DNA of 33,367 nt, from the NCBI GenBank assembly GCA_000934665.2, contig JYFJ02004284.1, positions 1 to 33,367 of the forward strand, in the 5' to 3' direction. A program made the position numbers and the translations under genes. How positions within the stretch are numbered: the first letter of the stretch is position 1; each line of letters opens with the position of its first letter. Under the pieces are notes generated by a model. It saw only the letters and a list, made by a program, of their open reading frames with translations. It was not told the DNA's origin and did not search any database. Below, piece by piece: positions 316-33,264 of this stretch. The stretch is from Catajapyx aquilonaris (taxonomy: Eukaryota).

Positions 316-584
316 CCCACTATTCCTTCCAGATCCAACTCCTAATGGGTCGTCTTCATCTTTGATCTCCCTATTCGTGGCCACCACCATCTCTTCCTCC
401 TCCTCCTCCTCTGCCACCTCCTTCTTGACCTCACAAAGGGTGTCTTCCATGAGCGTAGTAGAATCCTTGTCCAACCATGGTGGCGGTGCTTCCTCCTCCT
501 TCACCCTTAGCCTCCAACTCTCCTCGTCCACTGTGATGTCCTCCTCCTCCTTCACTTCCNCTTTATCCTCAGGATCAAAGACAT
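316..584 (-). CDS. ZF gene A, acidic N-terminal coding exon (ZF exon lies off the left edge)
   Basis: Acceptor ttttgcag|GACC-ATG at 588/584. Encodes MSLILRIK..VKEEEDITVDEESWRLRVKEE..EDDPLGVGSGRNSG, then phase-0 donor GGG|gtaatc. The apparent frameshift coincides with an N at 560. Homologous to the same exon in B, C, D, F. Confidence 0.75.
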
Positions 585-943
585 GGTCCTGCAAAACACA
601 AAGAGGGGAGGTCATGTAGTCATGTCAAGAGTGTAGTAACCCATTCAGGGCAACAATTATACTGCAGAGGAGGAGTATTGCGAGGAGAAGTGCGGGCAAA
701 GGGAAGCTAATAAGACAAGCCCCATCCCCAGGCCAGTCCACTCACCCTCCTTCTCCTTCCACTCCACAGTCCCCACTCCTCAGCCCCCTCCTCCTCCAGA
801 GTGCCAGCGATGTGTGGTCGAGAGGGGAAGAGTCCCTCCTCCTCCTCCTCCGGGTTCCAATCGAACCGAATCCAGGGGTTGAGTTCGATTCCCTCTCCCT
901 GGACAGAATGATGCTGCGGCCCGGTCTCTCGTTCGAGGCCAAG

Positions 944-1110
944 TCACTCCGCCATCTTTGATTCTGTCTCCTTCTCTTTCTTTCTTTTTTTATGCAAATT
1001 AGGGTGCGTTCCTACCCCCGCACCATGTCATGGAAGGAAGGCCTTATGCGCTATCCCTTCCCATTTCAACAATCGCTGCTGCTACTTCCGATATCAACGC
1101 TATTCGCAAC
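944..1110 (-). promoter_or_regulatory. Conserved promoter/5'-leader cassette of gene A
   Basis: Shared with four other copies: YY1/Pho-like AAGATGGCG, octamer ATGCAAAT (992-999), GGGTGCGTTCCT, CTTATGCGCTATC, AACGCTATTC. Exon-1 donor GTGAGT at 745-740. Confidence 0.6.
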
Positions 1111-2031
1111 ATACAGGCTTTGGCTGCAGTAGTAATACTGTGTGTCAAAAATTGTCTGCATGATTCTTACCTTTATTGGAATTTCATAATTACCCTGACA
1201 GAAAACCAACTTGTATATTGGCAGTTTCTTGCCGGAAAAATGGTCCATTTGAACAAAAGTCATGCTTGGCTCAACAAACACATACGTACCGGGTACCGGC
1301 ATACTCCTGCATGGAATATAAAGTTAGATAATAGCGACAGGTACACATGAGCCAAATCGACACAAAGATGAAGTGGTTAAAAATATACTTTTATTTGCGC
1401 TACCAACCTACACCTGAGCATAATCACATACCACATGTATATCACATCATGAAGTATTTTCAAACTAGGGCGAGGTATGTAATGCAGACATTTACTTACA
1501 CTTGAGTATAACGTAGACCTTCTTGAATGTAATGGCCAGCTCCGTGGGTATACGGGTGAGTGGGAGGGGAGGTGTCGGGTGAAAGTGGATGGCCTTTTTG
1601 TGACTTCCCCTGGGTGGATTAGTCTAGTGGGGATTCCAACTGAGATGGAGACAGAGACTACCCAACTCCATATGAAATGGAATGGGCAAAATTACATTGA
1701 ATTTTAAGCAAATGACATACTGTACCCCGATTATTTCTGGAACCTGTTTTAAGGGGGTCATCTCCATCTTCAATGTCGGCCAGGCTGATTGTCAAATTTC
1801 CCAACCAGAATATGTCACTCTCGTGTATGAATTTGCATGTGACGCTTCAAATTTATTTTGTTTCATTTCATTTTGTTTGTGTTACCTCACTGCCCATACA
1901 ATTACGTGTGGGGAGGGAGTTTATTCTCATAGAAAGAAGTAACACAACAAAATGAAATATTTACCACAGATATCCAATTCCTGCATACTACCATGACAGT
2001 GAAATAATGAAAAAAGGAGAAGAAAAAAAGA

Positions 2032-2050
2032 GTGTGTGTGTGTGTGTGTG
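2032..2050. repeat. (GT)n microsatellite
   Basis: Direct reading. Confidence 0.9.
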
Positions 2051-2359
2051 GGGCGGGGGATTGTCTGCATGTTTACATCCAATTTAGAAGGGTGTAGTAT
2101 CTCATCAGTATCCCATTTTTTATGTTCATAGCTAGAGGGGCATCGCTCAACTTCTTCTGAATAGAACTTCAGGCCATCTGATGTGACTTTTCTAATTCTT
2201 CGCATAATAAAAAATTTTCACAAATAAATGAGCTCTCTCTCTTGCGTACGTTTTCCAATCATAGGATAAAAGTTTTTTAAATGCCACAGCTCTAAAGCAA
2301 ATGGCATCCTTTCATGTATGAATTCTCATGTGCATGATCAACCTCCATGCATCAGGAAA

Positions 2360-3382
2360 TTAATTCTGGGACACCTCGCAAGTAACTCCTGCATGAATTC
2401 GAATGTGAGTATTCAAAGTACCTTGATACTTAAATTTGCTGTTGCACACCTCACAAGTAAATGGTTTACTCCCAGTATGAATTTGCATGTGCCTTTTCAA
2501 ATTCGTCGCATTACTCAAGTTTTTCTGGCATACCTCACATGTGAATGGTTTCACTTCTGTGTGACTTTGCATGTGCCTTTTCAAGCTATGTGAATCACGA
2601 TATTTTTTCTGGCACACCTCACAGCTATATGGCCTCTCTCCTGTATGAATTTGCATGTGAGTTTTCAAATGATATGAATCACTAAATTTTTTCTGGCACA
2701 CCTCACAAGCGAATGGTTTTTCTCCTGTATGAATTCGCATGTGAATTTTCAAGTGACCTGTCTGAATAAATTTTTTCTGGCACACTTCACAAGTAAATGG
2801 TTTGTCTCCTGTATGAATTCGCATGTGATCTTTCAAATTACTTGGAAGGGTAAATTTTTTCTGGCACACCTCACAAGTAAATGGTTTTTCTCCAGTATGA
2901 ATTCGCATGTGCTTTTTCAAATGAACTGTCTGAATAAATTTTTTCTGGCACACTTCACAAGTAAATGGTTTGTCTCCTGTATGAATTTTCATGTGAGTTT
3001 TCAAATTACTTGGACGGTTAAATTTTTTCTGGCACACCTCACAAGTAAATGGTTTTTCTCCCGTATGAATAAGCATGTGAGTCTTCAACTTATTTGATTC
3101 ACTGAATTTTTTCTGGCACACCTCACAAGTAAATGGTTTGTCTCCTGTATGAACGAGCATGTGAGTTTTCAACCTACTTGGATGAGGAAATTTTTTCTGA
3201 CAAATCTGGCAGCCATTTCTGTCACTATGAGTTATCATGTGAATATTCAAATCCTTCTGGGTGCCAAATGTTGTCTGGCATATTCTACACTCAAATGAAC
3301 TTCTTCCATCAAATATTCCCCTGCTCCTTTCCTCCTGGATCCCATTCTCTTCTTCTCCATCTTCAGTTCCCACTTGCATGAC
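2360..3382 (-). CDS. ZF gene B terminal exon, 11 C2H2 fingers
   Basis: Acceptor tttcag|GTC ATG, 341 codons, CxxC-x12-HxxxH repeats with TGEKP/TGDKP linkers. The upstream part of ORF 2360..3514 is intron. Confidence 0.92.
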   Translation of the reverse strand, partial: [340 protein letters not shown]

Positions 3383-3650
3383 CTGAAATGTAAAATTGCA
3401 GTACAGCAATTTTAATTTTACATTATTTTCATTGCCCTCCCTCGTGTTCCAATCATCTTCACCTTTTCTATGGCGCTTAAAAAGTGCAACAAATATACTG
3501 CACATACCCACCACTTTGTATTTTCAGTTTTGAAGTGTTATACTTTTGTGCATCTATACACTGAATATTAATGCTATGTAACCTTATCAGTATCAAGTTC
3601 AGCATTCATAAAAATTGATATGGTAAAATGAAGTAATTCCAACACCAAAT

Positions 3651-3995
3651 TATTATTATTATTATTTTTTTTTTTGCATTACCCCATTGGGAGTTACATT
3701 TCCTTTAGGGGGGTGGAATACCACCATTTGGGTGGAACCGGTATACTAAGATAGTATTTAGTGTGTTCCAAGGGTAGGTAGGAGGGGATGTGCAAAGTGC
3801 GTGTGCAATGTCGTTGATGTGCCGTTTTGTGAACTCCCCCGGGTGGCATATGTGAAAGGATCGCCACCCGAAACGAAGCCAGAGACGGTCTCACTCTGCG
3901 CGAGATGAAGGGGGGAACCCCGGGTTGGGATCGAACCCGGGACCTTAACATCCGCGGGCGCATACGTTACCGCAGCGCCACTTCGCCTCCCCGAG
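3651..3995 (-). mobile_element. tRNA-derived SINE
   Basis: Minus-strand A-box TGGCGCTGCGG and B-box GGTTCGATCCC, A/TAA tail, 12-bp TSD CCAACACCAAAT at 3639-3650 and 3996-4007. Confidence 0.85.
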
Positions 3996-5146: not shown

Positions 5147-5438
5147 GCACTGAAGCAGTGGTGGCGGAGGGGATATGGTATCCGACTGCTAATCGGGAGG
5201 TCCTGGGTTCGAATCCCGGTGCCGGCAACTCCAACTGTGGTTTTCTGTGGTCTCCCACGGTTCCTCCTGGAGAATTCCGGAGTTGTTTCCTAAACTAATA
5301 GGCCACAGCCGCCTCCTTCCTTTCCTATTCTATCCCAAAAAGCGCAGTAAAAGCGAAACGAAGAGTTCCAGTTAATAATAATAATAAAAAATCCCCCCCT
5401 AAAGAGACGCCGGCTGATAACAGGGTATGAATTATGAT
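5147..5438 (+). mobile_element. tRNA-derived SINE (second family)
   Basis: A-box-like TGGCGGAGGGG, B-box GGTTCGAATCCC, TSD TAAATGG(A/C)GCAGGA at 5133-5146 and 5439-5452. Paralogous introns (~10128, ~19407, ~25198) show the empty site. Confidence 0.85.
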
Positions 5439-5539: not shown

Positions 5540-5800
5540 ACCACTACTTCCAGAACCTCCTCCCAAAGGGTCGTCTTCCTCATCACTCTCCCTGGGCATG
5601 TCCACCACCATCTCCTCCTCCTCCGCTTCTTCCTTCTTGACCTCAAGGAGAGTGTCTCCCATGAGCGTAGCAGACTCACTGTCCAGCCATGGTGGTGGTG
5701 CTTCCTCCTCCTTCACCCTTAGTCTCCAACTCTCCTCGTCCACTGTGATGTCCTCCTCCTCCACTTCCTCCTTCTTTATCTTCTGCAGGATCAAAGACAT
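5540..5800 (-). CDS. ZF gene B acidic N-terminal coding exon (87 codons)
   Basis: ttgcag|GACC-ATG; MSLILQKIKKEE..EDDPLGGGSGSSG; donor GGT|gtaagt is phase 0 and in frame with the 3382 acceptor. Confidence 0.85.
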
Positions 5801-5932
5801 GGTCCTGCAAGCACAAAGAGTGGAGGCACCAAAAGGTTCCAGGCCACTCCGAGCAGCCGGATCCAAGCCCGTTGCAATACTCACCGTGGTGTGCCCAACA
5901 CACTTCGAGAGAATCGACGGGAATGATGCTCA

Positions 5933-6100
5933 TCAGGCGGCCAGCTTTCTTTCTCTTTTCTTTTTCTTTTTTATGCAAATGAAGGGTGCGTTCCTGTCGC
6001 CACACCAGTAGGGGGGGAAGGACGGGCTTATGCGCTGTCGCTCAGGAGTAGCCGCTACTGGCGCAGAGCTGCTACTTCCTCCAGCAACGCTATTTCACAA
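5933..6100 (-). promoter_or_regulatory. Conserved promoter/5'-leader cassette of gene B
   Basis: Octamer ATGCAAAT 5973-5980, GGGTGCGTTCCTGTCGCCACACCA, GGACGGGCTTATGCGCT. The YY1-like ATG is changed to CTG. Exon-1 donor GTGAGT at 5884. Confidence 0.6.
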
Positions 6101-7299: not shown

Positions 7300-8793
7300 T
7301 CATGTATGAATTTTCATGTGAGATTTCAACTTCCTAGATTCACGAAATTTTTTCTGGCACACCTCACAAGCGAATGGTTTTTCTCCTGTATGAATTCGCA
7401 TATGAGTTTTCAAATGACTGGAATGACGGAACTGTTTCTGGCACACCTCGCAAATAAATGGTTTTTCTCCTGTATGAATTCGCATGTGGCGTTTCAAACA
7501 ATATGAATCACGCAACTTTTTCTGGCACACCGCACAAGTAAATTGTGTGTCTACTGTATGAATTCGCATATGTGTTTTCAAATGACTGGTATCACGGAAC
7601 GTTTTATGGCACGCCTCACAAGTGAATGGTTTGTCTCCTGTATGAATTTTTATGTGAGATTTCAACTTCCTAGATTCACTAAATTTTTTCTGGCACACAT
7701 CACAAGCGAATGGTTTGTCTCCTGTATGAATTAGCATGTGTGTTTTCAAATGACTGGAATTACGGAACTTTTTCTGGCACACCTCGCAAGTAAATGGTTT
7801 TTCTCCTGTATGAATTCGCATGTGAGTTTTCAAACCATATGAATCATGGAACCTCTTCTGGCACACCTCACAAGTAAATGGTGTGTCTCCTGTATGAATT
7901 CGCATATGTGTTTTCAAATGACTGGTATCACGGAACTTTTTCTGGCAGACCTCACAAGTGAATGGTTTGTCTCCTGTATGAATTTTCATGTGAGATGTCA
8001 AATAACTTGATTTACGAAATTTTTTCTGGCACACTTCACAGGTAAATTGTTTTTCTCCTGTATGAATTTGCATGTGTGTTTTCATATGACTGGAATCACA
8101 GAACTTTTTCTGGCACAGCTCACAAGTGAATGGCTTGTCGCCTGTATGAATTTGCATGTGTCTTTTCAAAGTGCTGGAATGGCGGAACCTTTTCTGGCAC
8201 ACCTCACAAGCGAGTGGCTTTTCTCCTGTATGAATTAGAATGTGGAATTTTAACTTCCTAGATTCACAGAATTTTTTCTGGCACACCTCACAAGTGAATG
8301 GTTTGTCTCCTGTATGAATTCGCATGTGCGTTTTCAAATGATTGGAATTACGGAACTTTTTCTGGCACACCTCACAAGTAAATGGTTTTTCTCCTGTATG
8401 AATTCGCAAGTGGAATTTCAACTTCCTAGATTCACGAAATCTTTTCTGGCACACCTCACAACTAAATGGTTTGTCTCCTGTATGAATTAGCATGTGATTT
8501 TGCAAGGTACTGCGATTTCTAAAGTTCCTCTGGCACACCTCACAAATAAACTGTTTTTCTCCTGTGTGAATTCGCATGTGGATTTTCAACCAATGTGAAT
8601 TACTAAATTCCTTCTGGCAAAGAAGGCAGGTTTCAAAGTGCGTTCGCATGTGAACCTTCACATCATCCAGGGAACCAAATATTTTCTGGCATATTCTGCA
8701 CTCAAATGGATTTCTTCCATCACACATTCCCCTGCTCGTTTCATCCTGGATCACATTCTCTTCAACTCTGCCAGTAGTTCCCATTGTCACAAC
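7300..8793 (-). CDS. ZF gene C terminal exon, 17 C2H2 fingers
   Basis: Acceptor ttccag|GTT, 498 codons of tandem C2H2 repeats. Confidence 0.92.
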   Translation of the reverse strand, partial: [497 protein letters not shown]

Positions 8794-10237: not shown

Positions 10238-10504
10238 CGCACTAATGCTTCCGGAACCTCCTCCTAAAGGGTCTTCTTCATCTTCAACCACCCTCGGAAT
10301 GGCCACCACCATCTCCTCCTCCTCCTCCGCTTCCTCCTTCTTGATCTCACAAAGGGTGTCTTCCATGAGAGGGGAGCCATCATGAGAGCAAGAAGGGGCC
10401 TCCTCCTTCAACCGCAGCCTCCAAGTCTCCTCCGTTGTGATCCCACAGTCATCTCCTCCTTCCTCCTGCTCCTCTTCCTTCTTTATCTTCAGGATCAAAG
10501 ACAT
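10238..10504 (-). CDS. ZF gene C acidic N-terminal coding exon (89 codons)
   Basis: ttttgcag|GACC-ATG; MSLILKIKKEE..EEDPLGGGSGSISA; donor GCG|gtacgt, phase 0. Confidence 0.85.
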
Positions 10505-10775
10505 GGTCCTGCAAAACAATGCTGAAAGTAATAATTACATGCATGTCAAGGAGTGTCCCAATCAAGCCAGCTGCAGAGGAGCAGCAATCCTCTGGTGCGT
10601 GGGGAAAGGGAAAAAAACACGGCAGCATGGCAGCTACACAAAAGAGGTGGTCTATTGTTGGGTTCGCTGCAATGCAATACTCACCTCCTAAGAATGCGTA
10701 GTTATTCACCTGCTTGAGCTGCGAGGTCAGGACGAGGTCAAGACAACGGTTACTTGGAAAGAATCAATAGAACGC

Positions 10776-10940
10776 TCAGGCGGCCATCTTTGATTTCTCT
10801 TTTCCTTTTTTTTTTTTTGCAAATGAGGGGTGCGTTCCTGTCGCCACACCAGAGTCAAGGACGGGCTTATGCGCTATCACTACATGTCGACAATCGCTGC
10901 TACTGGTGCGGAACTGCTACTCTCCTCCATTTCACCGCTA
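10776..10940 (-). promoter_or_regulatory. Conserved promoter/5'-leader cassette of gene C
   Basis: CAAAGATGGCCGCC, TTGCAAAT, GGGTGCGTTCCTGTCGCCACACCAG, GGACGGGCTTATGCGCTATC. Candidate donors GTGAGT (10684) and GTGAAT (10709). Confidence 0.6.
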
Positions 10941-11648: not shown

Positions 11649-12656
11649 TCATGGCTTTTCTCCTGTATGAATTCGCATGTGAGATTTCAACTTCCCAGAT
11701 TCACGAAATTTTTTCTGGCACACCTCACATGTAAATGGTTTTTCTCCTGTGTGAATACGCATATGAATTTTCAAATGACTGGTATTACGGAACTTTTTCA
11801 GGCACACCTCGCAAGTAAATGGTTTTTCTCCTGTATGAATTCGCATGTGAGTTTTCAAATGAGTTGAGTCACGGAACTTTTTCTGGCACACCTCACAATT
11901 AAATGGTTTGTCTCCTGTATGAATACGCATGTGAGTTTTCAACTTCTGTGAATCACGCAACTTTTTCTGGCACACCTCACAAGTAAATGTTTTGTCTCCT
12001 GTATGAATTAGCATGTGAGATTTCAACCGAGTTGAATCACGGAATTTTTTCTGGCACACCTCACAATTGAATGGTTTGTCTCCTGTATGAAGTCGCATGT
12101 GAATTTTCAAACTACTGGAATAACGGAATTTTTTCTGGCACAACTCACAAGTAAATGGTTTGTCTCCTGTATGAATTCGCATGTGCCTTTTCAAATGATA
12201 TGAATCACGGTGTTTTTTCAGGCACACCTCACAAGTGAATGATTTTTCTCCTGTATGAATTGGCATGTGCCTTATCAAGTTCCTAGATTCACGAAATCTT
12301 TTCTGGCACACCTCACAAGTAAATCGTTTGTCTCCGGTATGATTTAGCATGTGATTTTGCAAATTACTGAGATTTCTAAAGTTCCTCAGGCACACCTCAC
12401 AAATAAACTGTTTTTCTAATGTGTGAATTCGCATGTGGGTTTTCAACCAATCTGAGTTACTAAATTCCTTCTGGCAAAGAGGGCAGCAATTTTTTTCACA
12501 GTGAGTTCGCATGTGATCCTTCACATCATCCATGGAACCAAATAATTTCCGGCATATTCTGCACTCAAATGGATTTCTTCCATCAGTCATTGCCCTGCTC
12601 CTTTCATCCTGGATCCCACTATCTTCAACTCTGCCTGCAGTTCCCACTGGCACAAC
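11649..12656 (-). CDS. ZF gene D terminal exon, 11 C2H2 fingers
   Basis: Acceptor ttccag|GTT, 336 codons, close paralog of C. Confidence 0.92.
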   Translation of the reverse strand, partial: VVPVGTAGRVEDSGIQDERSRAMTDGRNPFECRICRKLFGSMDDVKDHMRTHCEKNCCPLCQKEFSNSDWLKTHMRIHTLEKQFICEVCLRNFRNLSNLQNHMLNHTGDKRFTCEVCQKRFRESRNLIRHMPIHTGEKSFTCEVCLKKHRDSYHLKRHMRIHTGDKPFTCELCQKKFRYSSSLKIHMRLHTGDKPFNCEVCQKKFRDSTRLKSHMLIHTGDKTFTCEVCQKKLRDSQKLKTHMRIHTGDKPFNCEVCQKKFRDSTHLKTHMRIHTGEKPFTCEVCLKKFRNTSHLKIHMRIHTGEKPFTCEVCQKKFRESGKLKSHMRIHTGEKP

Positions 12657-12917
12657 CTGGAAAGTGAAGTACTATACATCAATTTTGATTTTTCAGCGTG
12701 CATCGTGTGAGGCGCCGGATACCTATGCGATTTTTGCGAATCACATTTAAAGTTTGGGAAAGTCACGGGTGCAGCGTTCTCTTCGCACTGCCGCGCCGAT
12801 GCGGGCATCTCTCTGGAGGTACGGACATGAAATTATCACAGCATGGCGAGGAAGGGCCAATTGAGCCACCTACGGAGCTTCTATCTATTAGAATAATAAT
12901 TGCGAGATCTAAATATA

Positions 12918-13479
12918 CAGGGTGTCTATTGTAACTCTGCAATGACTTTCAGGGGTAATAGAGGGGACCAAGACAAGTATTTTTGACATAGGAACCCATG
13001 TCAGGAAACGCCATCTAGAGGGGGTTCATAGACAAGGAACGGGTGAGCTCAGACGCGTCACGCGGGAGGCGCTAGGGGAGCGGCCTGTTTTGTTGATAGA
13101 TGGCGCTCGGATAGTAACCAACGATGCAATGTGTCATAACCTGACAACAGCAGAGCCATCTAGCAACTAAAGTATGCCTCCTAGGAAACGCGCGGATAGT
13201 CAACAGCGGTTCTGTTGTTGTCAGGTTATGGCTTATCGCGTTGTTGCTTGCGTACAACGACGCGATACGCCATAACCTGGCAACAACTGTGTGCCACCTA
13301 TCAAGAAAACAGTCCGCTCGCCTAGCGCCTCTCGCGTGACGCGTCTGAGCGCACCCGTTCCTTGTCTATGAACCCCCTCTAGATGGCGTTTCCGGACACG
13401 GGTTCCTATGTCAAAAATACTTGTCTTGGTCCCCTCTATTACCCCTGAAAGTCTTTGCAGAGTTACAATAAACACCCCG
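12918..13479. mobile_element. Tc1/mariner-type MITE
   Basis: TA|CAGGGTGTCTATTGTAACTCTGCAA ... TTGCAGAGTTACAATAAACACCCCG|TA, ~155-bp inverted arms, no coding capacity. Confidence 0.88.
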
Positions 13480-13779
13480 TATATGAAACGAGGTGGGTGT
13501 GTGAGGTGGGGTTCGGGGGTCAATGGGTCAAATATTCTGAAAACAACAACAACGACAACATGGCTATGCAGTCTTTTCCTGGGTCAACTCCATCCGCATT
13601 CCTCTTTGTACAGATCCAATCAGCATAATTATCTGCTTGGACTATGCTATAACAGAAGCAGTTAATCTATCACAGATAGTGACAAACTTTGGCTTATTGT
13701 AACGTATAAGGCGTATTTTAAGGTGTATTTGGTTTCAAGTGCATGGAACGCAAATTTTACGAACAAACTTTCTAAAATA

Positions 13780-14679
13780 CAGGGTGTAAATGAATTCAGG
13801 GGACAAACTTGTAGGGGTAATAGAGGGGACCAAGACAAACATATTTGACCTAGGAACCTGTGTCCGGAAACGCCATCTAGAGGGGGTTCATTTGTTCATA
13901 GACAAGGAACGGGTGCGCTCAGACGCGTCAGGTTTGCAGCGTTAGCGAGCGGACCGTTTAGTTGCTGGGTGGCGGGCGGATTGTACACAACTTCGCAATT
14001 TGCCATAACCTGGCAACAACAGAACCACCTAGCAAGAGAAGTCAGCATGCTAGGTAGTGGGCAGATAATAAACAACGGGGGAGGCACAGTGGCCGAGATG
14101 GTAATGTCTCGTCTAGCTATGCGATAGGTCCCGGGTTCAAATCCCCACCTGGGAACAAACCTCACGCTTGCGTCATTGGGTCGTGACCCGCGCCTAAGGA
14201 GGCGTCTTGGCAACCTGACCTCCTGGGGGACTGTACCTGACCCACCGCTGGACAATGCACCTGCACATGTGTCCCCTCCCAAAAATCCCCTACCCTTACC
14301 CAATTTCCTCGTATTCCTTGCACCGGTGATTGAAGTAAATATAAGAGAAAACTGTATGGTGGTCTGCCATCCCCCTAAAGCGGCCTAGGGTTGCATCACG
14401 GGGTAAATAAAATAAAAATAAAATAAAATAATAAACAACAACTCTGTTGTTGCCAGTTTATGGCGAAATACAAAGTTGTGTACAATCCGCCCGCCACCTA
14501 GCAGCTAAACGGTCCGCTCGCTAACGCCGCCAGCCTGACGGGTCTGAGCGCACCCGTTCCTTGTCTATGAACCCCCTCTAGATGGCGTTTCCGGACACGG
14601 TTTCCTATGTCAAATATGTTTGTCTTTGGTGCCCTCTATTACCCCTACAAGTTTGTCGGCTGAATTCATTTACACCCTG
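13780..14679. mobile_element. Related Tc1/mariner-type MITE carrying a nested SINE
   Basis: TA|CAGGGTGTAAATGAATTCAG ... CTGAATTCATTTACACCCTG|TA, long inverted arms, shares its subterminal sequence with the 12918 MITE. Confidence 0.88.
14077..14427 (+). mobile_element. tRNA-derived SINE nested in MITE
   Basis: A-box TGGCCGAGATGG, B-box GGTTCAAATCCC, (TAAAA)n tail, TSD ATAATAAACAAC at 14065-14076 and 14428-14439. Confidence 0.88.
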
Positions 14680-14711
14680 TAGATTACATTGCATTTTCAG
14701 CATATACTTAC

Positions 14712-15074
14712 CGCACTAATGCTTCTGGAACCTACCGCCAAAGGGTCTTCATCATCTTCAACCACCCTCGGCATGGCCACCACCATCTCCTCCTCCTCCT
14801 CCTCCTCCTCCTCTGCTGGAACAATTCCCAATGGGTCATCTTCCTCTTTGTCCCCCCTGGACGTGGTTGCCACCATCTCTTTCTCCCCCTCCTCCTCTGC
14901 TTCCTCCTCTTTGATCTCACGAAGCGTGTCTTCTATGAGAGTAGAGCCACCATCAAGGCAAGAAGGGGTCTCCTCCTTCAACCGCAGCCTCCAAGTCTCC
15001 TCCGTTGTGATCCCAACGTCATCTCCTCCTTCCTCCTGCTCCTCTTCCTTCTTTATCTTCAGGATCAAAGACAT
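14712..15074 (-). CDS. ZF gene D acidic N-terminal coding exon (121 codons, internal duplication)
   Basis: ttttgcag|GATC-ATG; two AEEEE..EMV..DPL modules; donor GCG|gtaagt, phase 0. Confidence 0.85.
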
Positions 15075-15353
15075 GATCCTGCAAAACAATGCTGAAAGTA
15101 ATAATTATATGCATGTCAAGGAGTGTCCCAATCAAGCCAGCTGCAGAGGAGCAGCAATTCTCTGGTGCGTGGGGAAAGGAAAGGGAAAAAACACGGCAGC
15201 ATGGCAGCTACACAAAAGAGATGGTATTGTTGGGTTCGCTGCAATACTCACCTCCTGAGTATGTACCCCACAGTTATTCACCTCCTTCAGCTGCGAGGTC
15301 AGGATGAGGTCAATTCAACGGGGGACACTTCTTCCAGAGAATCAACGGAATGC

Positions 15354-15517
15354 TCAGGCGGCCATCTTTGATTTCTTTTTCTTTTTTTATGCAAACGAGG
15401 GTGCGTTCCTGTCGCCACACCAGAGTCGAGGACGGGCTTATGCGCTATCAATGCATGTCGATAATCGCCGCTACTGGTGCAGAACTGCTACTCCCTTCCA
15501 ACTCAACGCTATTCACA
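15354..15517 (-). promoter_or_regulatory. Conserved promoter/5'-leader cassette of gene D
   Basis: CAAAGATGGCCGCC, ATGCAAAC, same conserved blocks as A-C. Donor GTGAGT at 15251. Confidence 0.6.
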
Positions 15518-16770: not shown

Positions 16771-17859
16771 CTATCGTGTATGAATTCGCATGTGAGTTTT
16801 CAAATTATATGAATCACGAAATTTTTTCTCGCACACCTCACAAGTAAATGATTTTTCTCCTGTATGAATTCGCATGTGCTTTTTCATCGTGGTTGAATAA
16901 CTAAACTTTTTTTGGCACACCTCACAAGTAAATGGTTTGTCTCCTGTATGAATTCGCATGTGAGTTTTCAAATTATATGAATCACGAAATTTTTTCTCGC
17001 ACACCTCACAAGTAAGTGGTTTTTCTCCTGTATGAATTCGCATGTGCTTTTTCATCGTGGATGAATCACTAAACTTTTTTTGGCACATCTCACAAGTAAA
17101 TGGTTTTTCTCCTGTATGAATTCGCATGTGAATTTTCAAATGACTTGAATGACGGAACTTTTTCTGGCACACCTCACAAGTGAATGGTCTCTCTCCTGCG
17201 TGAATTCGCATGTGGATTTTCAACTGACTTGAATCACGACATTTTTTCTGGCACACATCACAAGTAAATTGTTTTTCTCCAGTGTGAATTCGCATGTGAA
17301 TTTTCAAATGTGATGATTTACGAAATTTTTTCTGGCACATTTCACAAGTGAATGGTTTTTCTCCTGTATGGATTCGCATGTGAATTTTCAAATGACTTGA
17401 AAGACGAAATTTTTTCCGGCACACCTCACAAGTGAATGGTTTGTATCCTGAATGAGTTTGCATGTGAATTTTCAACTTGCATGATTCACGAAAATTTTTC
17501 TTGCACACCTCGCAAGTGAATGCTGGTTTGTCTCCTGAATGAATTCGCATGTGAGATGTCAAATCATGCAGATTTCTAAATTTTTTCTGGCACACCTCAC
17601 AATAAGGGCATGGTTTTTCTCCTGTGTGAATATGCATATGGGTTATCAACCTACGCGAATTAGTAAATTTTTTCTGGCAAAGAGGGCAGCAATTTCTTTC
17701 ACAGCGAGTTCGCATGTGAACCTTCACATCATCCGGGGTACCAAATAATTCCTGGCTCATTCTGCACTCAAATGGATTTCTTCCATCAGTCATTGCCCTG
17801 CTCCATTCATCCTGGATCCCACTCTCTTCAACTCTGCCTGCAGTTCCCACTGGCACAAC
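16771..17859 (-). CDS. ZF gene E terminal exon, 11 intact fingers plus 1 degenerate first finger; no own promoter or start visible
   Basis: Acceptor ttccag|GTT, 363 codons open. The first finger reads CRMS..HMRTR (lost one Cys and one His). Confidence 0.75.
   Translation of the reverse strand, partial: VVPVGTAGRVEESGIQDEWSRAMTDGRNPFECRMSQELFGTPDDVKVHMRTRCERNCCPLCQKKFTNSRRLITHMHIHTGEKPCPYCEVCQKKFRNLHDLTSHMRIHSGDKPAFTCEVCKKNFRESCKLKIHMQTHSGYKPFTCEVCRKKFRLSSHLKIHMRIHTGEKPFTCEMCQKKFRKSSHLKIHMRIHTGEKQFTCDVCQKKCRDSSQLKIHMRIHAGERPFTCEVCQKKFRHSSHLKIHMRIHTGEKPFTCEMCQKKFSDSSTMKKHMRIHTGEKPLTCEVCEKKFRDSYNLKTHMRIHTGDKPFTCEVCQKKFSYSTTMKKHMRIHTGEKSFTCEVCEKKFRDSYNLKTHMRIHTR

Positions 17860-19067: not shown

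Positions 19068-19101
<34 letters not shown>
19068..19101. repeat. (CA)n microsatellite
   Basis: Direct reading. Confidence 0.9.
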
Positions 19102-19526: not shown

Positions 19527-19583
19527 CCCACCAATCCTTCCAGAACCAACTCCTAAAGGGTCATCTTCATCTTCAACCACACC
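19527..19583 (-). pseudogene. 3' remnant of gene E acidic exon
   Basis: Encodes GVVEDEDDPLGVGSGRIGG with intact donor GGG|gtaagc. Homology stops abruptly at ~19585. Confidence 0.8.
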
Positions 19584-20574: not shown

Positions 20575-20667
20575 TAGTTTCTCTCACGTATGAATTCGCA
20601 TGTGATATTTCAACCTCGTTGGATCAGAAAGGTTTTTCTGGCACAAATCACAAGTGAATGGTTTCTC
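20575..20667 (-). pseudogene. Eroded finger after gene F stop
   Basis: *EKPFTCDLCQKNLSDPTRLKI then a frameshift to HMRIHT. The same lesions occur at 31777-31864. Confidence 0.8.
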
Positions 20668-21666
20668 CTACTTATGAATGAGCAAGTGCCTCTTCAAAAC
20701 ATATGGTTTACAAAACGCTTTCTGGCACACCTCACAAGTGAATGGTTTTTCTCCTGTATGAATTCGCATGTGAATTTTCAACGTACATGATTTATGAAAT
20801 CTTTTCTCGCACACCTCACAAGTGAATGGTTTTTCTCCTGTATGAATTCGCATGTGAATTTTCAACTTACTTGAATAACGAAACTTTTTCTCGCACACCT
20901 CACAAGTGAATGGTTTTTCTCCTGTATGAATTAGCATGTGAGTTTTCAAATTACTTGACTGGGTGAATTTTTTTTGACACACCTCACAAGTAAATGGTTT
21001 ATCCCCTGTGTGAATTCGCATATGAATTTTCAACTTAGTACTTGTATTACAAAAAAAAATCTGGCACACTTCGCAAGTGAATGGTTTTTCTCCTGTATGA
21101 ATTCGCATGTGAATTTTCAGCTTAGTTGAATTAAGCAACTTTTCCTGGCACACCTCACAAGTGATTGATTTTTCTCCCGTATGAATTCGCATGTGCCTTT
21201 TCAACTTACATGATTTACGGAATTTTTTCTCGCACACTTCACAAGTGAATGGTTTTTCTCCTGTATGAATTCGCATGTGCGTTTTCAAATGACTAAGTTT
21301 TGTAAATGTGTTCTGGCAGACCTCACAACTAAATGGTCTCTCTCCTGTATGAATTCGCATGTGAGTTTTCAAATATCCTGACTCACGAAATGTTTTCTGG
21401 CACACCCCACAGGCAAATGGTTTTTCTCCTGTGTGAATTAGCATATGAGCTTTCAACCCACAAGAATGACTGAACTTTTTCCCGCAAACATGGCAGCAAT
21501 TTTTCTCACTATGAGTAATGACGTGAATATTCAAATCATCCTGGGCACCAAATATTATCTGGCATACTCTGCACTCAAATGGATTTCTTCCATCACATAT
21601 TCCCCTGCTCCTTTTCTCCTGTATCCAATTCTCTGCTACGCCATGCTCAGTTCTCACTTGCACAAC
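20668..21666 (-). CDS. ZF gene F terminal exon, 11 C2H2 fingers
   Basis: Acceptor ttccag|GTT, 333 codons. Finger 7 has one extra residue (FFCNTSTKL). Confidence 0.92.
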   Translation of the reverse strand, partial: VVQVRTEHGVAENWIQEKRSRGICDGRNPFECRVCQIIFGAQDDLNIHVITHSEKNCCHVCGKKFSHSCGLKAHMLIHTGEKPFACGVCQKTFRESGYLKTHMRIHTGERPFSCEVCQNTFTKLSHLKTHMRIHTGEKPFTCEVCEKKFRKSCKLKRHMRIHTGEKSITCEVCQEKLLNSTKLKIHMRIHTGEKPFTCEVCQIFFCNTSTKLKIHMRIHTGDKPFTCEVCQKKFTQSSNLKTHMLIHTGEKPFTCEVCEKKFRYSSKLKIHMRIHTGEKPFTCEVCEKRFHKSCTLKIHMRIHTGEKPFTCEVCQKAFCKPYVLKRHLLIHK

Positions 21667-21763: not shown

Positions 21764-24069
21764 CATTTCCTAATTTTTATTTTTATTTTACTTAACCCCT
21801 TGGGAGAAACATCGCTCCTTTAGGGGGGTGGAAAACTACCATTTTCCATCACTATTTTCTCGCATATTTTCTTTGTACACTGTACAATAGGGCGGCTCGA
21901 AAAACACTTTTTTTCGAAAGTTGTAGTTCGCTAGTGAAAAAAAGTTGTGTTGGGCGATCCTTTTAACAGGTAAAAAATCTGAGTCATGTGGGTTAATATC
22001 CTACGGCTCCGCCAGGGGCGTAAGTGACGCAACTTCCGGTTTTTCGTGTTTTGGTGTGCGAGTACACTTACCCGGCCTAAACATGAAAAGTTGTGGCCCT
22101 TTGGGGGTGAAATGTCGTTATCTTTGCGATATCTTGCACCGTTGACGAGATATTGACCAAAGCCCCAGGTTCAAAAATTACACCGTTCTGCAAAAAAACA
22201 CTCTCTTTCGCTCTTTTGAAACCTTTTTTGTGCTTTATATGGATTTTGGGGTGCTGAATCCGAATCCGGCAACAGATTTGCTCTATCACGTACAGTTTGT
22301 GAGATATATCGTTTTAAAACTTTGGACGATTTACTAGGGGTCTTTCCGAATCAAGTGGGCCTAAATGTTGCTAGACCGCCTTGGATCTTGGTGAAAATAA
22401 TCACAGATGTACTAATCTATTCCTTAACGCTTCCTATAAAAATTCAGCCATATTGCTCAATTCTATGATAAGGGGAAAAATCGCAAACATCTGGAAATGG
22501 CTGAGAATGAGGCCCTTTTTGGAGATTTTTTTTTCGGTTAGTGCAAGTGGTCAAACCCCAATGAACATATATATCAAAAGAAAGGGAAACACCAGGGCAA
22601 TGCGCCTATGGAATTAGTATTCCTCTAAAATGTAAAAATAAATTTTTATAGCATTTCATTTGTCACTTGCACAGTCACATGCCCAAGAATATATTGTGAC
22701 CTCAACATGTTCTGCAGAAAAATCCTATTTTGGATAAAAGTAGATGGACTATATTATAGATTAAGGTATGCTGAATCCAGATCTGAAGTCAGAATGGCTC
22801 TATCACGTACATATTTTGAGAAAACGCAAATTGTGGGAGATACGACACTTAAATCAAGAATTGTTGTTTTTCACAGTTGTCGCAGTGTATATCCAGGACT
22901 GCGTAAGGGTTTTCCCCGCAGGACTGCCCGAACCTGTGATATACGTTTTTGTATAAGTGTAAAAGGTACGAGAGGGAGTCGGCCAAGGACAGTCGATTAG
23001 AATTGTTGAGGTCACAATATATTCTTGGGCATGTGACTGAGCAAGTGACAAATGAAATGCTATAGAAATTTATTTTTACATTTTAGAGGAATACTAATTC
23101 CATAGGCGCATTGTCCTGGTGTTTCCCCTTATTTTGATATATATGTTCATTGGGGTTTGACCACTTGCACTAACCGAAAAAAAAATTCTCCAAAAAAGGC
23201 CTCTTAGCCATTTCCAGATGTTTGCGATTTTTTCCCTCATCATAGTATTGAGCAATATGGCTGAATTGTTATAGGAAGCGTTAAGGAATAGATGAGTACA
23301 TCTGTGATTATTTTCACCAAGATCCAAGGCGGTCTAGCAACATTTAGGCCCACTTGATTCGGAAAGACCCCTAGTAAATCGTCCAAAGTTTTAAAACGAT
23401 ATATCTCACAAACTGTACGTGATAGAGCAAATCTGTTGCCGGATTCGGATTCAGCACCCCAAAATCCATATAAAGCACAAAAAGGTTTCAAAAGAGCGAA
23501 AGAGAGTGTTTTTTTGCAGAACGGTGTAATTTTTGAACCTGGGGCTTTGGTCAATATCTCGTCAACGGTGCAAGATATCGCAAAGATAACGACATTTCAC
23601 CCCCAAAGGGCCACAACTTTTCATGTTTAGGCCGGGTAAGTGTACTCGCACACCAAAAAACGAAAAACCGGAAGTTGCGTCACTTACGCCCCTGGCGGAG
23701 CCGTAGGATATTAACCCACATGACTCAGATTTTTTACCTGTTAAAAGGATCGCCCAACACAATTTTTTTTCACTAGCGAACTACAACTTTCGAAAAAAAA
23801 GTGTTTTTCGAGCCGCCCTACAAACTGTACAAGGGAGAAAGGACATAGGGAGGGGAATGAGAATTTTTGGGGAGGAGACAAGGTTGCAAGAGCAATGACG
23901 GAAACTGGGCCATGTGGAATGTCCCAGGAGGTTAGGTTGCCAGATGTCTCCAAGGCACGGGTCAGGGACCCTCCTGACGCAGGTGAAAGGGAACATCTGG
24001 GCAGGACTCTAACCCGGGACATTTCGCCCAGCAAGCCGAGTCGTTACGACTTGGCCACTACACCTCCCT
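21764..24069 (-). mobile_element. tRNA-derived SINE split by a foldback insertion
   Basis: 15-bp TSD GGTATCCCTTATTAT at 21749-21763 and 24070-24084, A-box TGGCCAAGTCG, B-box-like GGTTAGAGTCC. An uninterrupted copy lies at 28609-28951. Confidence 0.8.
21888..23820. mobile_element. Foldback-type non-autonomous DNA transposon with ~820-bp terminal inverted repeats
   Basis: Arms 21888-22707 and 23004-23820 are near-perfect reverse complements around a 296-bp spacer. ACTGTACAA is duplicated at 21879-21887 and 23824-23832. Empty site at ~28720-28735. Confidence 0.9.
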
Positions 24070-25306: not shown

Positions 25307-25555
25307 CCCACTAATCCTTCCAGAACCCACTGCCAAAGGGTCTTCTTCATCATTGACCACATCGGATGTGGTCAGCTCCATCTCTTCTTCCTCCTCCTTG
25401 ATCTCGGGGAGAGTGTCTTCTAAGAGCGTAGAGCCAACATCAAAGCAGGAAGGGGTCTCCTCCTTCACCCTTAGCCTCCAACTCTCCTCATCCACTGTGA
25501 TGTCCTCCTCCTCCTTCACTTCCCCTTCCTTCTTTATCGTCAGGATCAAAGACAT
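25307..25555 (-). CDS. ZF gene F acidic N-terminal coding exon (83 codons)
   Basis: tttgcag|GGCC-ATG; MSLILTIKKEGEVKEE..EEDPLAVGSGRISG; donor GGG|gtatgt, phase 0. Confidence 0.85.
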
Positions 25556-25726
25556 GGCCCTGCAAACACAGTGCGGACACTTCTACTATAATCATTACCG
25601 TTGCCGGATAAAAAAGGGAACTCCTCAGTACGGGTGGTTATTCACCTGCTCGAGCTGTTTCGCCTAGGGATGGGCTCAACTCGACGGGGGGACACTCTCT
25701 CTCTGAAGAGAACAAGGCGAGGGAGG

Positions 25727-25897
25727 TCAGGCGGCCATCTTGGATTCCACTCGATTCTTTTTTATGCGAATTAAAGGGTGCGTTCCTGTCACCGCGCCAG
25801 AGAGTGAAAAGGACGGCCTTAAGCGCTATCCCTTCCCTTTCTATACACGCCGCTACTTCTGAATCGCCGCTACTCCTTCCAACGACGCTATTCACAC
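25727..25897 (-). promoter_or_regulatory. Conserved promoter/5'-leader cassette of gene F
   Basis: CAAGATGGCCGCC, ATGCGAAT, GGGTGCGTTCCTGTC, GGACGGCCTTAAGCGCTATC, ACGCTATTCAC. Donor CAG|GTGAAT at 25645. Confidence 0.6.
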
Positions 25898-27256: not shown

Positions 27257-28504
27257 TCATGTATGAATGCACTTGTGAGAATTCAGAGTACCTATATGAC
27301 GAAATTGTTTCTGGCACACCTGACAAGTAAACGGTTTTTCTCCCGTATGAATTAGCATGTGCCTTTTCAACTTATTTAATTCACTGAATTTTTTCTGGCA
27401 CACATCACAAGTGAATGGTTTGTCTCCTGTATGAATTCGCATGTGAGTTTTCAACTTATTTGATACACTGAATTTTTTCTTGCACACCTCACAAGTAAAG
27501 GGTTTTCCTCCTGTGTGAATAAACATGTGCCTTTTCAAAATATATGGTTTGCAAAACGTTTTCTGGCACACCTCACAAGTGAATTGTTTTTCTCCCGTAT
27601 GAATTAGCATGTGCCCTTTCAAATTATTTGATTCATGGAACTTTTTCTGGCACACATCACAAGTGAATGGTTTTTCTCCTGTATGAACGAGCATGTGAGT
27701 TTTCAACTCACTTGATTCACAGAATTGTTTCTGGCACACATCACAAGTGAATGGGTTGTCTCCTGTATGAAGGAGCATGTGAGTTTTCAAACAATATGAA
27801 TGACTTAATTTTTTCTGACACACTTTACAAGTAAGTGGTTTTTCTCCTGTATGAATTCGCATGTGAGTTTTCAAACAATATGAATCACGAAACCTTTTCT
27901 GGCACACATCACAAGTAAAGGGTTTTTCTCCTGTGTGAATAAACATGTGAGTTTTCAAATCATATGAACCACGAAACTTTTTCTGACACACTTCACAAGT
28001 GAATGGTTTTTCTCCGGTATGAATTCGCATGTGAGTTTTCAAATGAGTTGGATTTGTAAATGTGTTCTGGCACACTTCACAAATATATGGTTTTTCTCCT
28101 GTATGGATATGCATATGAGTTTTCAAATTATATGCGTCACGAAACTTTTTCTGGCAGACCTCACAAGTAAATGGTTTTTCTCCTGTATGGATATGCATAT
28201 GAGTTTTCAAATTATATGCGTCACGAAACTTTTTCTGGCAGACCTCACATGTTAATGGTTTTTCTCCTGTGTGAATTCGCATATGAATTTTGAAGCCAGA
28301 AGAATGACTGAACTTTTTCCCGCAAACATGGCAGCAATTTTTCTCACTATGAGTAATGATGTGAATATTCAAATCATCCTGGGTACCAAATATTATCTGG
28401 CATACTCTGCACTCAAATGGATTTCTTCCATCACATATTCCCCTGCTCCTTTTCTCCTGTATCCAATTCTCTGCTACGCCATGCTCAGTTCTCACTTGCA
28501 CAAC
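27257..28504 (-). CDS. ZF gene G terminal exon, 14 C2H2 fingers; no own promoter or start visible
   Basis: Acceptor ttccag|GTT, 416 codons, all fingers keep their zinc ligands. Confidence 0.82.
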   Translation of the reverse strand, partial: VVQVRTEHGVAENWIQEKRSRGICDGRNPFECRVCQIIFGTQDDLNIHIITHSEKNCCHVCGKKFSHSSGFKIHMRIHTGEKPLTCEVCQKKFRDAYNLKTHMHIHTGEKPFTCEVCQKKFRDAYNLKTHMHIHTGEKPYICEVCQNTFTNPTHLKTHMRIHTGEKPFTCEVCQKKFRGSYDLKTHMFIHTGEKPFTCDVCQKRFRDSYCLKTHMRIHTGEKPLTCKVCQKKLSHSYCLKTHMLLHTGDNPFTCDVCQKQFCESSELKTHMLVHTGEKPFTCDVCQKKFHESNNLKGHMLIHTGEKQFTCEVCQKTFCKPYILKRHMFIHTGGKPFTCEVCKKKFSVSNKLKTHMRIHTGDKPFTCDVCQKKFSELNKLKRHMLIHTGEKPFTCQVCQKQFRHIGTLNSHKCIHT

Positions 28505-30566: not shown

Positions 30567-30818
30567 CTCACTAATCGTTCCAGAACCAACTGCCAAAGGG
30601 TCATCTTCATCATCATCGACCGCTCTGGATGTGGTCAGCTCCTCCTCCTCCTCCTCCTCCTCCTCTCCTTCCTCCTTCTTGATCTCGAGGAGAGTGTCTT
30701 CCATTAGAGTAGAGCAATCATCAAAGCATGAAGGGGTCTCCTCCTTCAAGGGAATCTGCCACGTCTCTTCTGTTGTGATGTCCTCATCTCCTTCTTCCTC
30801 CTTCTTTATCTTCAGGAT
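30567..30818 (-). pseudogene. Gene G acidic exon lacking its acceptor and start codon (frame still open)
   Basis: ILKIKKEEEGDEDITTEETWQIPLKEE..EDDPLAVGSGTISE, donor GAG|gtatga. The cag|GACCATGTCTTTG start is replaced by a T10 run. Confidence 0.75.
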
Positions 30819-30855
30819 AAAAAAAAAAGTTGCTTATGATAACCATATTCTTCAT

Positions 30856-30905
30856 GGTTTTATGAATTCGCATGTGGGCTTTCAAATCATTGGACTGACG
30901 AATTT
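30856..30905 (-). pseudogene. Isolated half zinc-finger relic
   Basis: Reads IRQSNDLKAHMRIHKT on the minus strand. Confidence 0.65.
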
Positions 30906-30942
30906 AAAATAAATTAAAGTCTCAAGAGGTTGTCTCAGCGAT

Positions 30943-33264
30943 CCCCATTACTGTACAGTCAGAGGTTTCACTGAAACTACATTATTAGATGCTGCAATAA
31001 TAAAAATAATTACCCACGTTGGATTGAGGTCGAAATGTCAAATTAATGCACATTTTAACATATGAATATTAATTTTGAAGACATCCTTAAATTTCCTCGA
31101 GCCTCACTTATTGTCACGTTGAGTATCCAACATCCACGGGCAAATTGCATGCAAGTTGTCTGGTAGCCTCCTTCGTGAATTTCCACCACAATTTTTCTAT
31201 AGCCACGATGGCCAATTTTTTTTTTGACTGACATGTTGCTCACACAAAAGATCCATGTTACGGGCGGTAGCCTCTAAGAAAGACCATACACCGTATACAT
31301 AAAACATTTTGTTTGAAATAAAACACTATCAAAACACATGAAAACTGCAGTTTTTTTCTTCTCCAAATGCATGGACAGTTTGTACAGTACACAACACTGG
31401 CATTTGTAACAGGATGCTCATAGATTATTATCATAATTACGATTGACATTGAATTGCCACAGGCCAATTTCAAGTGATGCGATCTTACCTATATATATAT
31501 TTCAACAAGTTTTTTAAATACCTCATCTGAGGAGGTTAGAAGTACCGTGCCTTTACAGTGCAACTAATCTAAATCCGTATGCACTTACCATACGTTACCC
31601 TACAATCCAACATTGAACTGAGCACGTGTGTGCCTCAACCGTGAGATTGAAAACTTATCTGTAGGAAGCGGAGATAAGTGACAGATGGGAAAAATCACCC
31701 TTGCGGCATTATGAAGTGACTTCCTGCAGGTGGGAAGGTGATCTCTTGTGCATCGCTACTCTACTAATATATTGCTTCTCTCATGTATGAATTCGCATGT
31801 GATATTTCAACCTGGTTGAATCAGAAAGGTTTTTCTGGCACACATCACAAGTGAATGGTTTCTCCTACTTATGAATAAGCATGTGCCTTTTCAAAACATA
31901 TGGTTTACAAAACGCTTTCTGGCACACCTCACAAGCGAAGGGTTTTTCGCCTGTATGAATATGCATGTGAGTTTTCAAATCATATGAACCACGAAACTTT
32001 TTCTGACACACTTCACAAGTAAATGGTTTTTCTCCTGTATGAATTCGCATGTGAGTTTTCAAACGACTTGGATTTGTAAATGTGTTCTGGCACACTTCAC
32101 AAACATATGGTTTTCCTCCTGTATGAATATACATATGAGTTTTCAAATCATATGCAACACAAAAAATTTTCTGGCACACCTGACAAGTAAATGGTTTTTC
32201 TCCTGTATGAATTCGCATATGAGTTTTCAAACAATATGAATCCCGAAACTTTTTCTGACACACATCACAAGTAAATTGTTTTTCTCCTGTATGAATTCGC
32301 ATGTGAATTTTCAACTTACATGATTTACGAAATCTTTTCTGGCACACCTCACAAATAAATGGTTTTTCTCCTGTATGAATTCGCATGTGAATTTTCAACT
32401 TACTTGAATTAAAAAACTTTTTCTGGCACACCTCACACGTGAATGGTTTTTCTCCTGTATGAATTCGCATGTGCTTTTTCAAATGACTTGAATCACTAAA
32501 TTTTTTCTGGCACACCTCACAATTAAATGGTTTTTCTCCTGTATGAATTCGCATGTGAATTTTCAACTTACTTGATTTACAAAAAAATTTCTGGCACACT
32601 TCACAAGTGAATGGTTTTTCTCCTGTATGAATTCGCATGTGAATTTTCAGCTTACTTGAATTAGGCAACTTTTTCTGGCACACCTCACAAGTGAATCGTT
32701 TTTCTGCTGTATGAATTCGCATGTGAATTTTCAACTTACATGATTTACGAAATTTTTTCTGGCACACCTCACAAGTGAATGGTTTTTCTCCTGTATGAAT
32801 TCGCATGTGACTTTTCAAATTTCCAGAACCACGAAATGTTTTCTGGCACACCTCACAGGCAAATGGTTTTTCTCCTGTGTGAATTCGCATATGAATTTTC
32901 AACCCAGACGAATGACTGAACTTTTTCCCGCAAACATGGCAGCAATTTTTCTCACTATGAGTAATGATGTGAATATTCCAATCATCCTGGGTACCAAATA
33001 TTATCTGGCATACTCTGCACTCAAATGGATTTCTTCCATCACATATTCCCCTGTTCCTTTCCTCTTGTATCCAATTCTCTGCTACGCCATGTTCATTTCT
33101 CACTTGCACAACCTGGAACGTGAATTACAGTTTATCAATTACTATTATGCAGTGTGGACAGACTCACGCTTTCCACATGTTTTGTCATTTGGAAGGTATC
33201 CCTTATTATCATTTCCTTATTTTTATTGTTATTTTACTTAACCCATTGGGAGAAACATCGCTCC
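30943..33264. repeat. Segmental duplication of 19599-21820 (3' flank, ZF exon, intron start)
   Basis: Non-coding flanks are colinear and highly similar. The F copy has ~150 extra bp at ~20197-20345. Confidence 0.88.
31865..33112 (-). CDS. ZF gene H terminal exon, 14 C2H2 fingers (5' exons off the right edge)
   Basis: Acceptor ttccag|GTT, 416 codons, close paralog of F and G. Confidence 0.9.
   Translation of the reverse strand, partial: VVQVRNEHGVAENWIQEERNRGICDGRNPFECRVCQIIFGTQDDWNIHIITHSEKNCCHVCGKKFSHSSGLKIHMRIHTGEKPFACEVCQKTFRGSGNLKSHMRIHTGEKPFTCEVCQKKFRKSCKLKIHMRIHTAEKRFTCEVCQKKLPNSSKLKIHMRIHTGEKPFTCEVCQKFFCKSSKLKIHMRIHTGEKPFNCEVCQKKFSDSSHLKKHMRIHTGEKPFTCEVCQKKFFNSSKLKIHMRIHTGEKPFICEVCQKRFRKSCKLKIHMRIHTGEKQFTCDVCQKKFRDSYCLKTHMRIHTGEKPFTCQVCQKIFCVAYDLKTHMYIHTGGKPYVCEVCQNTFTNPSRLKTHMRIHTGEKPFTCEVCQKKFRGSYDLKTHMHIHTGEKPFACEVCQKAFCKPYVLKRHMLIHK

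Follow-up and report, generated by a model that had tools for sequence, protein, structure and literature searches.

The contig JYFJ02004284.1 from the 286-Mb draft genome of Catajapyx aquilonaris (GCA_000934665.2), analysed over its whole length of 33,367 nucleotides (nt) and called the window below, carries a tandem row of C2H2 zinc-finger genes built from a short acidic exon (the head) and a single finger exon. It raises the question of what family these genes belong to and how such a family would work. The family is real, large and adaptively evolving, and its head is unlisted in the databases searched. With modest confidence, we favour a family evolving by birth and death whose members are repressors that bind specific DNA sequences, have the build of KRAB-ZNF and FiNZ-ZNF genes, and bear a head with SUMO-type motifs. 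The entire cassette (promoter, non-coding exon, acidic exon and finger exon) would duplicate in tandem, and the finger arrays would diversify through selected point replacements at base-contacting residues together with swaps, duplications and losses of whole fingers. The head, acidic and presumably disordered, strings together short motifs (three psi-K-x-E, an EEEM-V-V patch and an invariant DPL); it would take SUMO and thereby recruit a common silencing or chromatin cofactor wherever the fingers bind.

All genes of the window lie on the minus strand. Six-frame translation located seven finger exons, each a single-exon C2H2 array (11, 17, 11, 11, 10–11, 14 and 14 fingers) of repeated C-x2-C-x12-H-x3-H units with TGEKP-type linkers, matched by Pfam zf-C2H2 and zf-H2C2_2; seven whole or partial acidic heads are also present. 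An earlier reading of the window from its letters (the sequence-only reading) had described eight same-strand units, each with an acidic and a finger exon. The common strand was confirmed, with seven arrays, but only four of the eight units are complete genes (U1, U2, U3 and U5). Since U0 and U7 are cut by the contig ends and U4 and U6 are 5'-truncated and promoterless, the count of eight was too high. The predicted order in the complete genes is promoter boxes, a short non-coding exon 1, the acidic exon (83–121 codons, beginning 4 nt past the acceptor), a phase-0 intron of 1.4–3.6 kb and one finger exon. The phase-0 joining of acidic to finger exon proposed earlier is borne out in all four predicted structures, and the common promoter and exon 1 are additions to that description. 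The units are composed as follows.

316..588, minus strand: U0 acidic head exon, ATG at 584; an N at 560 disrupts the frame, possibly an assembly gap; the finger exon is off the contig
949..1055, minus strand: U0 promoter boxes (upstream box, GGAACGCACC, octamer-like box and AAGATGGC), with putative box roles; exon 1 extends to a donor at 745
2363..3382, minus strand: U1 zinc-finger exon, 340 amino acids (aa), 11 fingers
5540..5804, minus strand: U1 acidic head exon, 87 codons from the ATG at 5800, phase-0 donor
5885..6039, minus strand: U1 promoter boxes and non-coding exon 1, donor at 5884
7303..8793, minus strand: U2 zinc-finger exon, 497 aa, 17 fingers, with degenerate fingers beyond the stop
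10238..10508, minus strand: U2 acidic head exon, 89 codons from the ATG at 10504
10685..10878, minus strand: U2 promoter boxes and non-coding exon 1
11652..12656, minus strand: U3 zinc-finger exon, 335 aa, 11 fingers
14712..15078, minus strand: U3 acidic head exon, 121 codons, with the EEEM...DPL tail present twice
15252..15449, minus strand: U3 promoter boxes and non-coding exon 1
16774..17859, minus strand: U4 zinc-finger exon, 362 aa, 11 intact fingers, one cysteine gone from the first finger
19527..19575, minus strand: U4 3' stub of the head (about 50 nt) with donor, lacking start codon and promoter
20587..21666, minus strand: U5 zinc-finger exon, 332 aa, 11 fingers and one more past a TAG in the linker
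25307..25559, minus strand: U5 acidic head exon, 83 codons from the ATG at 25555
25646..25830, minus strand: U5 promoter boxes and non-coding exon 1
27260..28504, minus strand: U6 zinc-finger exon, 415 aa, 14 fingers, open frame
30567..30822, minus strand: U6 head exon, most of the head kept but start codon and promoter absent; it follows a finger remnant derived from another gene
31784..33112, minus strand: U7 zinc-finger exon, 415 aa, 14 fingers and one more past a TAG; the head is off the contig

Intact, near-identical copies of the U0 head exist on contig G000:C2909, and U5 and U7 have a common stop ahead of the last finger. The DNA upstream of the truncated heads of U4 and U6 is paralogous (19599–20197 versus 30943–31538, 86%), which points to a single truncation that was duplicated, U4 losing more afterwards. 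Headless, promoterless finger exons with intact acceptors, located after complete genes, were also noted elsewhere (G000:C2972:22655–26661 and C2127:21356–24330, besides U4 and U6). These orphan exons may be either pseudogenes or alternative last exons that use the head of the upstream gene.

The same cassette recurs across the genome. A search with the U2 head gave at least 150 matches from 450 candidates, and a divergent head gave 139 matches among the best 150 scored, further contigs included. A profile survey of 22 hit-rich contigs (570 kb, window included) detected 112 heads. This exceeds the number listed there by the U2 search, so the family total probably exceeds 200 heads, a few of them likely haplotype duplicates. 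Arrays that are 97–100% identical on separate contigs (G000:C2640/C6448, C2972/C8869 and C10010/C9098) are probably uncollapsed haplotypes and inflate the family counts. An open ATG-to-donor frame followed by a downstream exon of at least three fingers was found for 71 of the 112 heads; in these automatic models, all three parts (promoter, open head and finger exon) are present in 56, and a recognised promoter box is the only element missing from the other 15. The 71 modelled genes carry 4–25 fingers, so that the 11–17 fingers noted earlier hold for the window but are a local range, and their introns measure 55–7285 nt (under 100 nt in 11 of the 71). The statistics given here rest on about 0.7 Mb of hit-rich contigs, which hold part of the family.

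The head is about 85 aa long and contains 33% Asp and Glu with W, L and F interspersed. No Pfam family reached the cut-off in 46 heads, none of which matched KRAB (PF01352) at E-values up to 0.1, and no match to zf-AD, BTB or SCAN was found in the heads; the absence of these domains from the window was thus rightly noted before, and the lack of a match to any described domain family leaves the sequence-only reading standing. Homologs of the head were found neither by a word search among longer proteins (974 candidates) nor by a profile search among 1.84 billion protein representatives, where low-complexity queries lose sensitivity. Atlas matches to the head were all below 0.9, and a KRAB cluster at 0.83 with 65 of 256 features is to be taken as a lead only. 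In the literature listings and opening parts of abstracts searched, and in the text of the papers cited here, no description of the head was found; the supplementary species table of Wells et al. may count such arrays. The AlphaFold model has low confidence (predicted local distance difference test, pLDDT, 59; predicted template modelling score, pTM, 0.15), as expected of a head predicted to be disordered.

Short motifs are what the heads have in common. In 75 heads of 70–100 aa, the pattern [IVL]-K-x-E (psi-K-x-E) occurs 3.2 times per head versus 0.25 in 200 shuffles, 242 of the 382 lysines lie within it, and DPL is present in all 75. Among 28 close head pairs, the ratio of non-synonymous to synonymous differences per site (pN/pS) is 0.07 for the motif Glu, 0.24–0.42 for the Lys and 0–0.07 for DPL, versus 0.49–0.81 for the rest, so the psi-K-x-E motifs and DPL are under strong purifying selection. 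As psi-K-x-E is the usual SUMO attachment site (PMC7915335; this and the other papers cited are represented by the accessible parts of their text), its recurrence suggests that the head most likely takes SUMO at these motifs. Finger genes with a single large exon that opens with a related acidic stretch (IKQE, VKTE, EEEM..V..EDPLG) and has no phase-0 intron were observed at G000:C2127:25371–28813; perhaps they represent an older relative of the head.

The fingers evolve differently. In the 83 fingers of the window, the framework has low entropy and helix positions -2, -1, 2, 3 and 6 have high entropy, just as a constant framework and a variable helix had been described. Entropy peaks at helix positions -1, 3, 6, -2 and 2, plus one non-contact strand position, and 923 fingers carry 710 distinct contact prints. 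As high variability alone is generic, selection was tested on the finger codons, using 1082 fingers from 125 arrays of at least five fingers (709 kb). Greedy nearest-neighbour pairing at 1–12% nucleotide distance, in which no finger was used twice and three contig pairs that are probably allelic were excluded, gave 245 pairs. Contact codons show 225 replacement versus 27 silent single-base changes (neutral share 0.786, p = 7e-6), the framework shows 398 versus 241, and other variable non-contact positions are neutral-like (85 versus 26), with a ratio of non-synonymous to synonymous rates (omega) of about 1.1. The excess of non-synonymous change at contact residues, on which the sequence-only reading depended, is therefore present. 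A maximum-likelihood fit on a grid with one distance per pair gave an omega of 1.48 for contacts versus 0.52 for the framework (likelihood-ratio test statistic 28.9), and contact omega is 1.7–2.3, with values of 2.06–2.31 among these, when the mutation model is taken from introns or fourfold sites and when CpG changes are removed. In internal fingers it reaches 3.39 (176:14), versus 0.76–2.13 in 28 neutral simulations on the same tree. The 1–8% distance subset (147 pairs) has 95 versus 14 contact changes (p = 0.013; likelihood-ratio test p = 0.053), and pairs including a window finger have 43 versus 5 (p = 0.039).

Whole fingers are exchanged as well: swaps were found in 6 of 33 flank-defined pairs, and the U5–U7 arrays are mosaic. 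Altogether, diversifying selection on base-contacting codons, at an omega of about 1.5–2 and alongside whole-finger swaps, has moderate to good support. The first finger of each array (for example, window 3296–3230) bears a signature common to the family (G at -2, T at -1 and D at 3) without an excess of replacements, and may serve a protein contact rather than DNA reading. Residues 1–85 of the U6 finger exon, used as a query, retrieved only generic finger proteins at 35–45% identity.

Comparison with known systems indicates that, as far as sequence can tell, the family works like the FiNZ, KRAB and ZF271-like families and probably belongs to none of them. The FiNZ-ZNF genes of cyprinid fish (Wells et al. 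2023, PMC10547256) likewise have one exon for a short Glu-rich head without a known domain and then one finger exon, and they exist in hundreds of lineage-specific copies, some of which show positively selected contact residues. However, FiNZ is 28 aa long, whereas the Catajapyx head has about 85 aa, is predicted to be unfolded and carries three psi-K-x-E and DPL; the fish belong to another phylum, and the head homology searches gave no sequence link. Derepression of transposable elements (TEs) on knockdown is reported for FiNZ-ZNFs in the same paper, and embryonic expression is a further mark of those genes, whereas the Catajapyx family is known from its sequence. KRAB-ZNF genes, through which vertebrates silence transposons, have the same layout. 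With the KRAB-ZNF genes of tetrapods (PMC7915335, PMC10672805) the Catajapyx family shares tandem clusters, an effector exon followed by a single finger exon, shuffling, pseudogenes and selection at helix positions -1, 2, 3 and 6, but the 46 heads have no KRAB match and the head is probably not folded. SUMO would also sit on the Catajapyx finger protein itself and not, as in the KRAB system, on the corepressor. SUMO links KRAB/TRIM28 to SetDB1 (PMC7915335), and SUMO-dependent routes to SetDB1 and H3K9me3 silencing operate in insects (PMC10672805).

Among hexapods, the milkweed bug and the pea aphid offer a parallel in their ZF271-like/APEZ genes (Panfilio et al. 2019, PMC6444547), which are lineage-specific, KRAB-less and accompanied by pseudogenes, with tandem clusters of 4–8 genes and more than 115 ZF271-like members in Oncopeltus. 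In the accessible text they are described with no other domain and with variable exon structure, unlike the common promoter, motif-bearing head and phase-0 intron of Catajapyx. The ZAD-ZNF genes of insects are also lineage-specific and clustered, and they are present in the Catajapyx genome (nine ZAD matches over the cut-off among 27 candidates). There they form separate multi-exon clusters lacking the acidic-head cassette, whose genes in turn lack the Cys4 domain, and they make up another finger-gene expansion of this genome, independent of the first. Tandem clusters of such near-paralogous genes were observed on G000:C2790, C5848 and C5382. The idea of a lineage-specific finger repertoire has been published before, with FiNZ-ZNF in cyprinids and ZF271-like in Hemiptera as precedents. 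For Catajapyx, the independent, lineage-specific and fast-evolving repertoire that had been proposed is upheld by the number of heads, the lack of a head homolog elsewhere in the searches, the separate ZAD-ZNF clusters and the contact replacement excess.

Several points weigh against a SUMO-recruiting repressor family. Fingers 1–2 have no significant excess (32:7, p = 0.3), and 33 pairs set by both neighbouring fingers give a contact omega of 1.48 with p = 0.11, and an omega of 1.0 after dropping five with a replaced central finger. Random finger pairs carry the same excess of replacement over silent changes (2.6–2.9), so conversion tracts could import part of the contact signal. Pairs with at most two helix differences show only 70:11 (p = 0.046), there is some dependence among the finger pairs, and pseudogenes may be included among the arrays. 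The motifs are part of the profile used to find heads, a bias towards seeing them conserved. Splicing of head to fingers is predicted from the DNA letters; the read runs X5 and X1 contain no splice joints over 2200–20100, both cover intronic DNA, and they are uninformative on expression. Acidic disordered regions can also activate. An activation domain is acidic with interspersed W, L and F, and disordered, and both the composition and the disorder prediction of the head fit this. That the family activates lineage-specific genes is nevertheless very improbable: conservation is strongest in the SUMO-type motifs and DPL, and not in the aromatics alone, and FiNZ and KRAB are likewise acidic, yet tied to repression. 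Mostly neutral birth-and-death, in which unequal crossing-over and gene conversion amplify the cassette, contacts drift and most copies do little, would account for the truncated U4 and U6, the stops within arrays, the degenerate tails, a framework omega as high as 0.5 and the strict pairs near 1 at contacts. We regard it as improbable, since the contact omega of internal fingers lies above all 28 neutral simulations, the head motifs are under strong purifying selection, and the open frame and splice signals are kept in most sampled heads.

A possible, though on the whole unlikely, alternative is that the proteins are architectural or heterochromatin-organising factors like the dipteran ZAD-ZNFs, which would bind fast-changing satellites, promoters or insulators and use the SUMO motifs for nuclear-body or insulator assembly. 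Positive selection on contacts fits any moving target. Dipteran ZAD-ZNFs have heterochromatin-organisation roles and apparently, in the accessible text of Wells et al. (PMC10547256), do not target TEs, which by analogy suggests that such families need not target transposons. Insect expansions need no arms race as driver (Panfilio et al., PMC6444547). After loss of the insect TIF1 protein Bonus most TE families are unchanged in the accessible part of the report (PMC10672805), and as Bonus mostly does not silence TEs, a function unrelated to transposons stays alive. However, ZAD-ZNF genes already exist apart from the family in this genome, their arrays being conserved and multi-exon, and the single-exon shuffling arrays and two-part layout of the acidic-head genes are closer to FiNZ and KRAB genes. 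For the favoured repressor family, mobile or repetitive DNA is the likeliest driver, with chances that we consider evenly balanced, and transposon surveillance is plausible by analogy. A bolder version, which we find rather doubtful, would make the family the KRAB-like genome defence, without a folded effector, that this probably early-branching hexapod lineage has built for itself: every finger protein, evolving adaptively and equipped with a multi-SUMO platform, would bring SUMO-reading silencing factors directly to young transposons, and promoterless exons of the U4/U6 type would be spliced to the head of the upstream gene and so enlarge the repertoire. Finger-gene expansions arise independently and track transposon load across animals, and outside tetrapods the effector half is mostly undefined; for insect KRAB-less families, the effector is named as an open question (PMC6444547). 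The Catajapyx family offers a sharply defined candidate, with one short common exon pointing to SUMO paired with fingers under diversifying selection. If its targets are not transposons, it would be an ordinary example of well-known gene-family turnover.

In the hit-rich contigs, the full promoter pattern occurs exactly 37 times and the reversed control 0 times, and the acceptor lies 4 nt ahead of the ATG in 75 of 86 open heads. Exon 1 usually begins with a three-codon frame; it is short and has an in-frame upstream start in none of the 66 promoter-bearing heads, so no ZAD or other domain is concealed upstream. A hidden upstream ZAD exon was accordingly ruled out, there being no room between promoter and head. 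The conserved AAGATGGC box (949–958, 10781–10790, 15359–15368 and 25732–25741 in the window) starts the three-codon upstream frame, which reads MAA, MAD or MAE before its stop, in 34 of these 66 heads; the frame may damp translation or be a mere by-product of the binding site. We take this box to be YY1/Pho-like and the TTTGCAT box to be octamer-like.

The introns of the window carry the following repeats.

3779..3991, no strand assigned: high-copy SINE-like (short interspersed nuclear element) insertion, U1 intron; depth peak and loose ends at 3779/3991 in DNA run X1
5152..5330, plus strand: tRNA-derived SINE, U1 intron; Rfam tRNA at 5155–5227 (32 bits versus gathering 29), depth peak
12913..14686, no strand assigned: two related inverted-repeat elements resembling miniature inverted-repeat transposable elements (MITE-like) and a SINE-like piece, U3 intron; inverted repeats I4, I5 and I9, highest depth in X1
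21888..23820, no strand assigned: non-autonomous DNA-transposon-like (foldback-like) element, U5 intron; 1.9 kb, 820-bp terminal inverted repeats

At least three other contigs match 85% of the U3 intron. The U5-intron element is young: its arms are 97% alike, the genome holds at least 40 full-length arm matches at 94–100% (best 40 of 1380 candidates), many copies being at 94–97%, and it is not present at the paralogous site in the U6 intron. By a rough measure, repeats cover 12–85% of individual introns and 0–55% of spacers. Introns full of TEs, as noted earlier, are thus a property of the window, where high-copy insertions do occur, but not of the family, given its introns under 100 nt. As evidence for surveillance, the intronic transposons were dismissed, since such short introns exist and the spacers are also repeat-bearing; the insertions indicate an active transposon load and have no bearing on targeting.

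Two other domain types were encountered in the surveyed DNA. An exon within a family cluster (G000:C2972:19001–20000) has a C-x-V-P-x-C ... C-x-x-H-F pattern, which we take to be THAP-like. A BTB-finger gene is present on another contig, and its best named match is a springtail protein with 52% identity.

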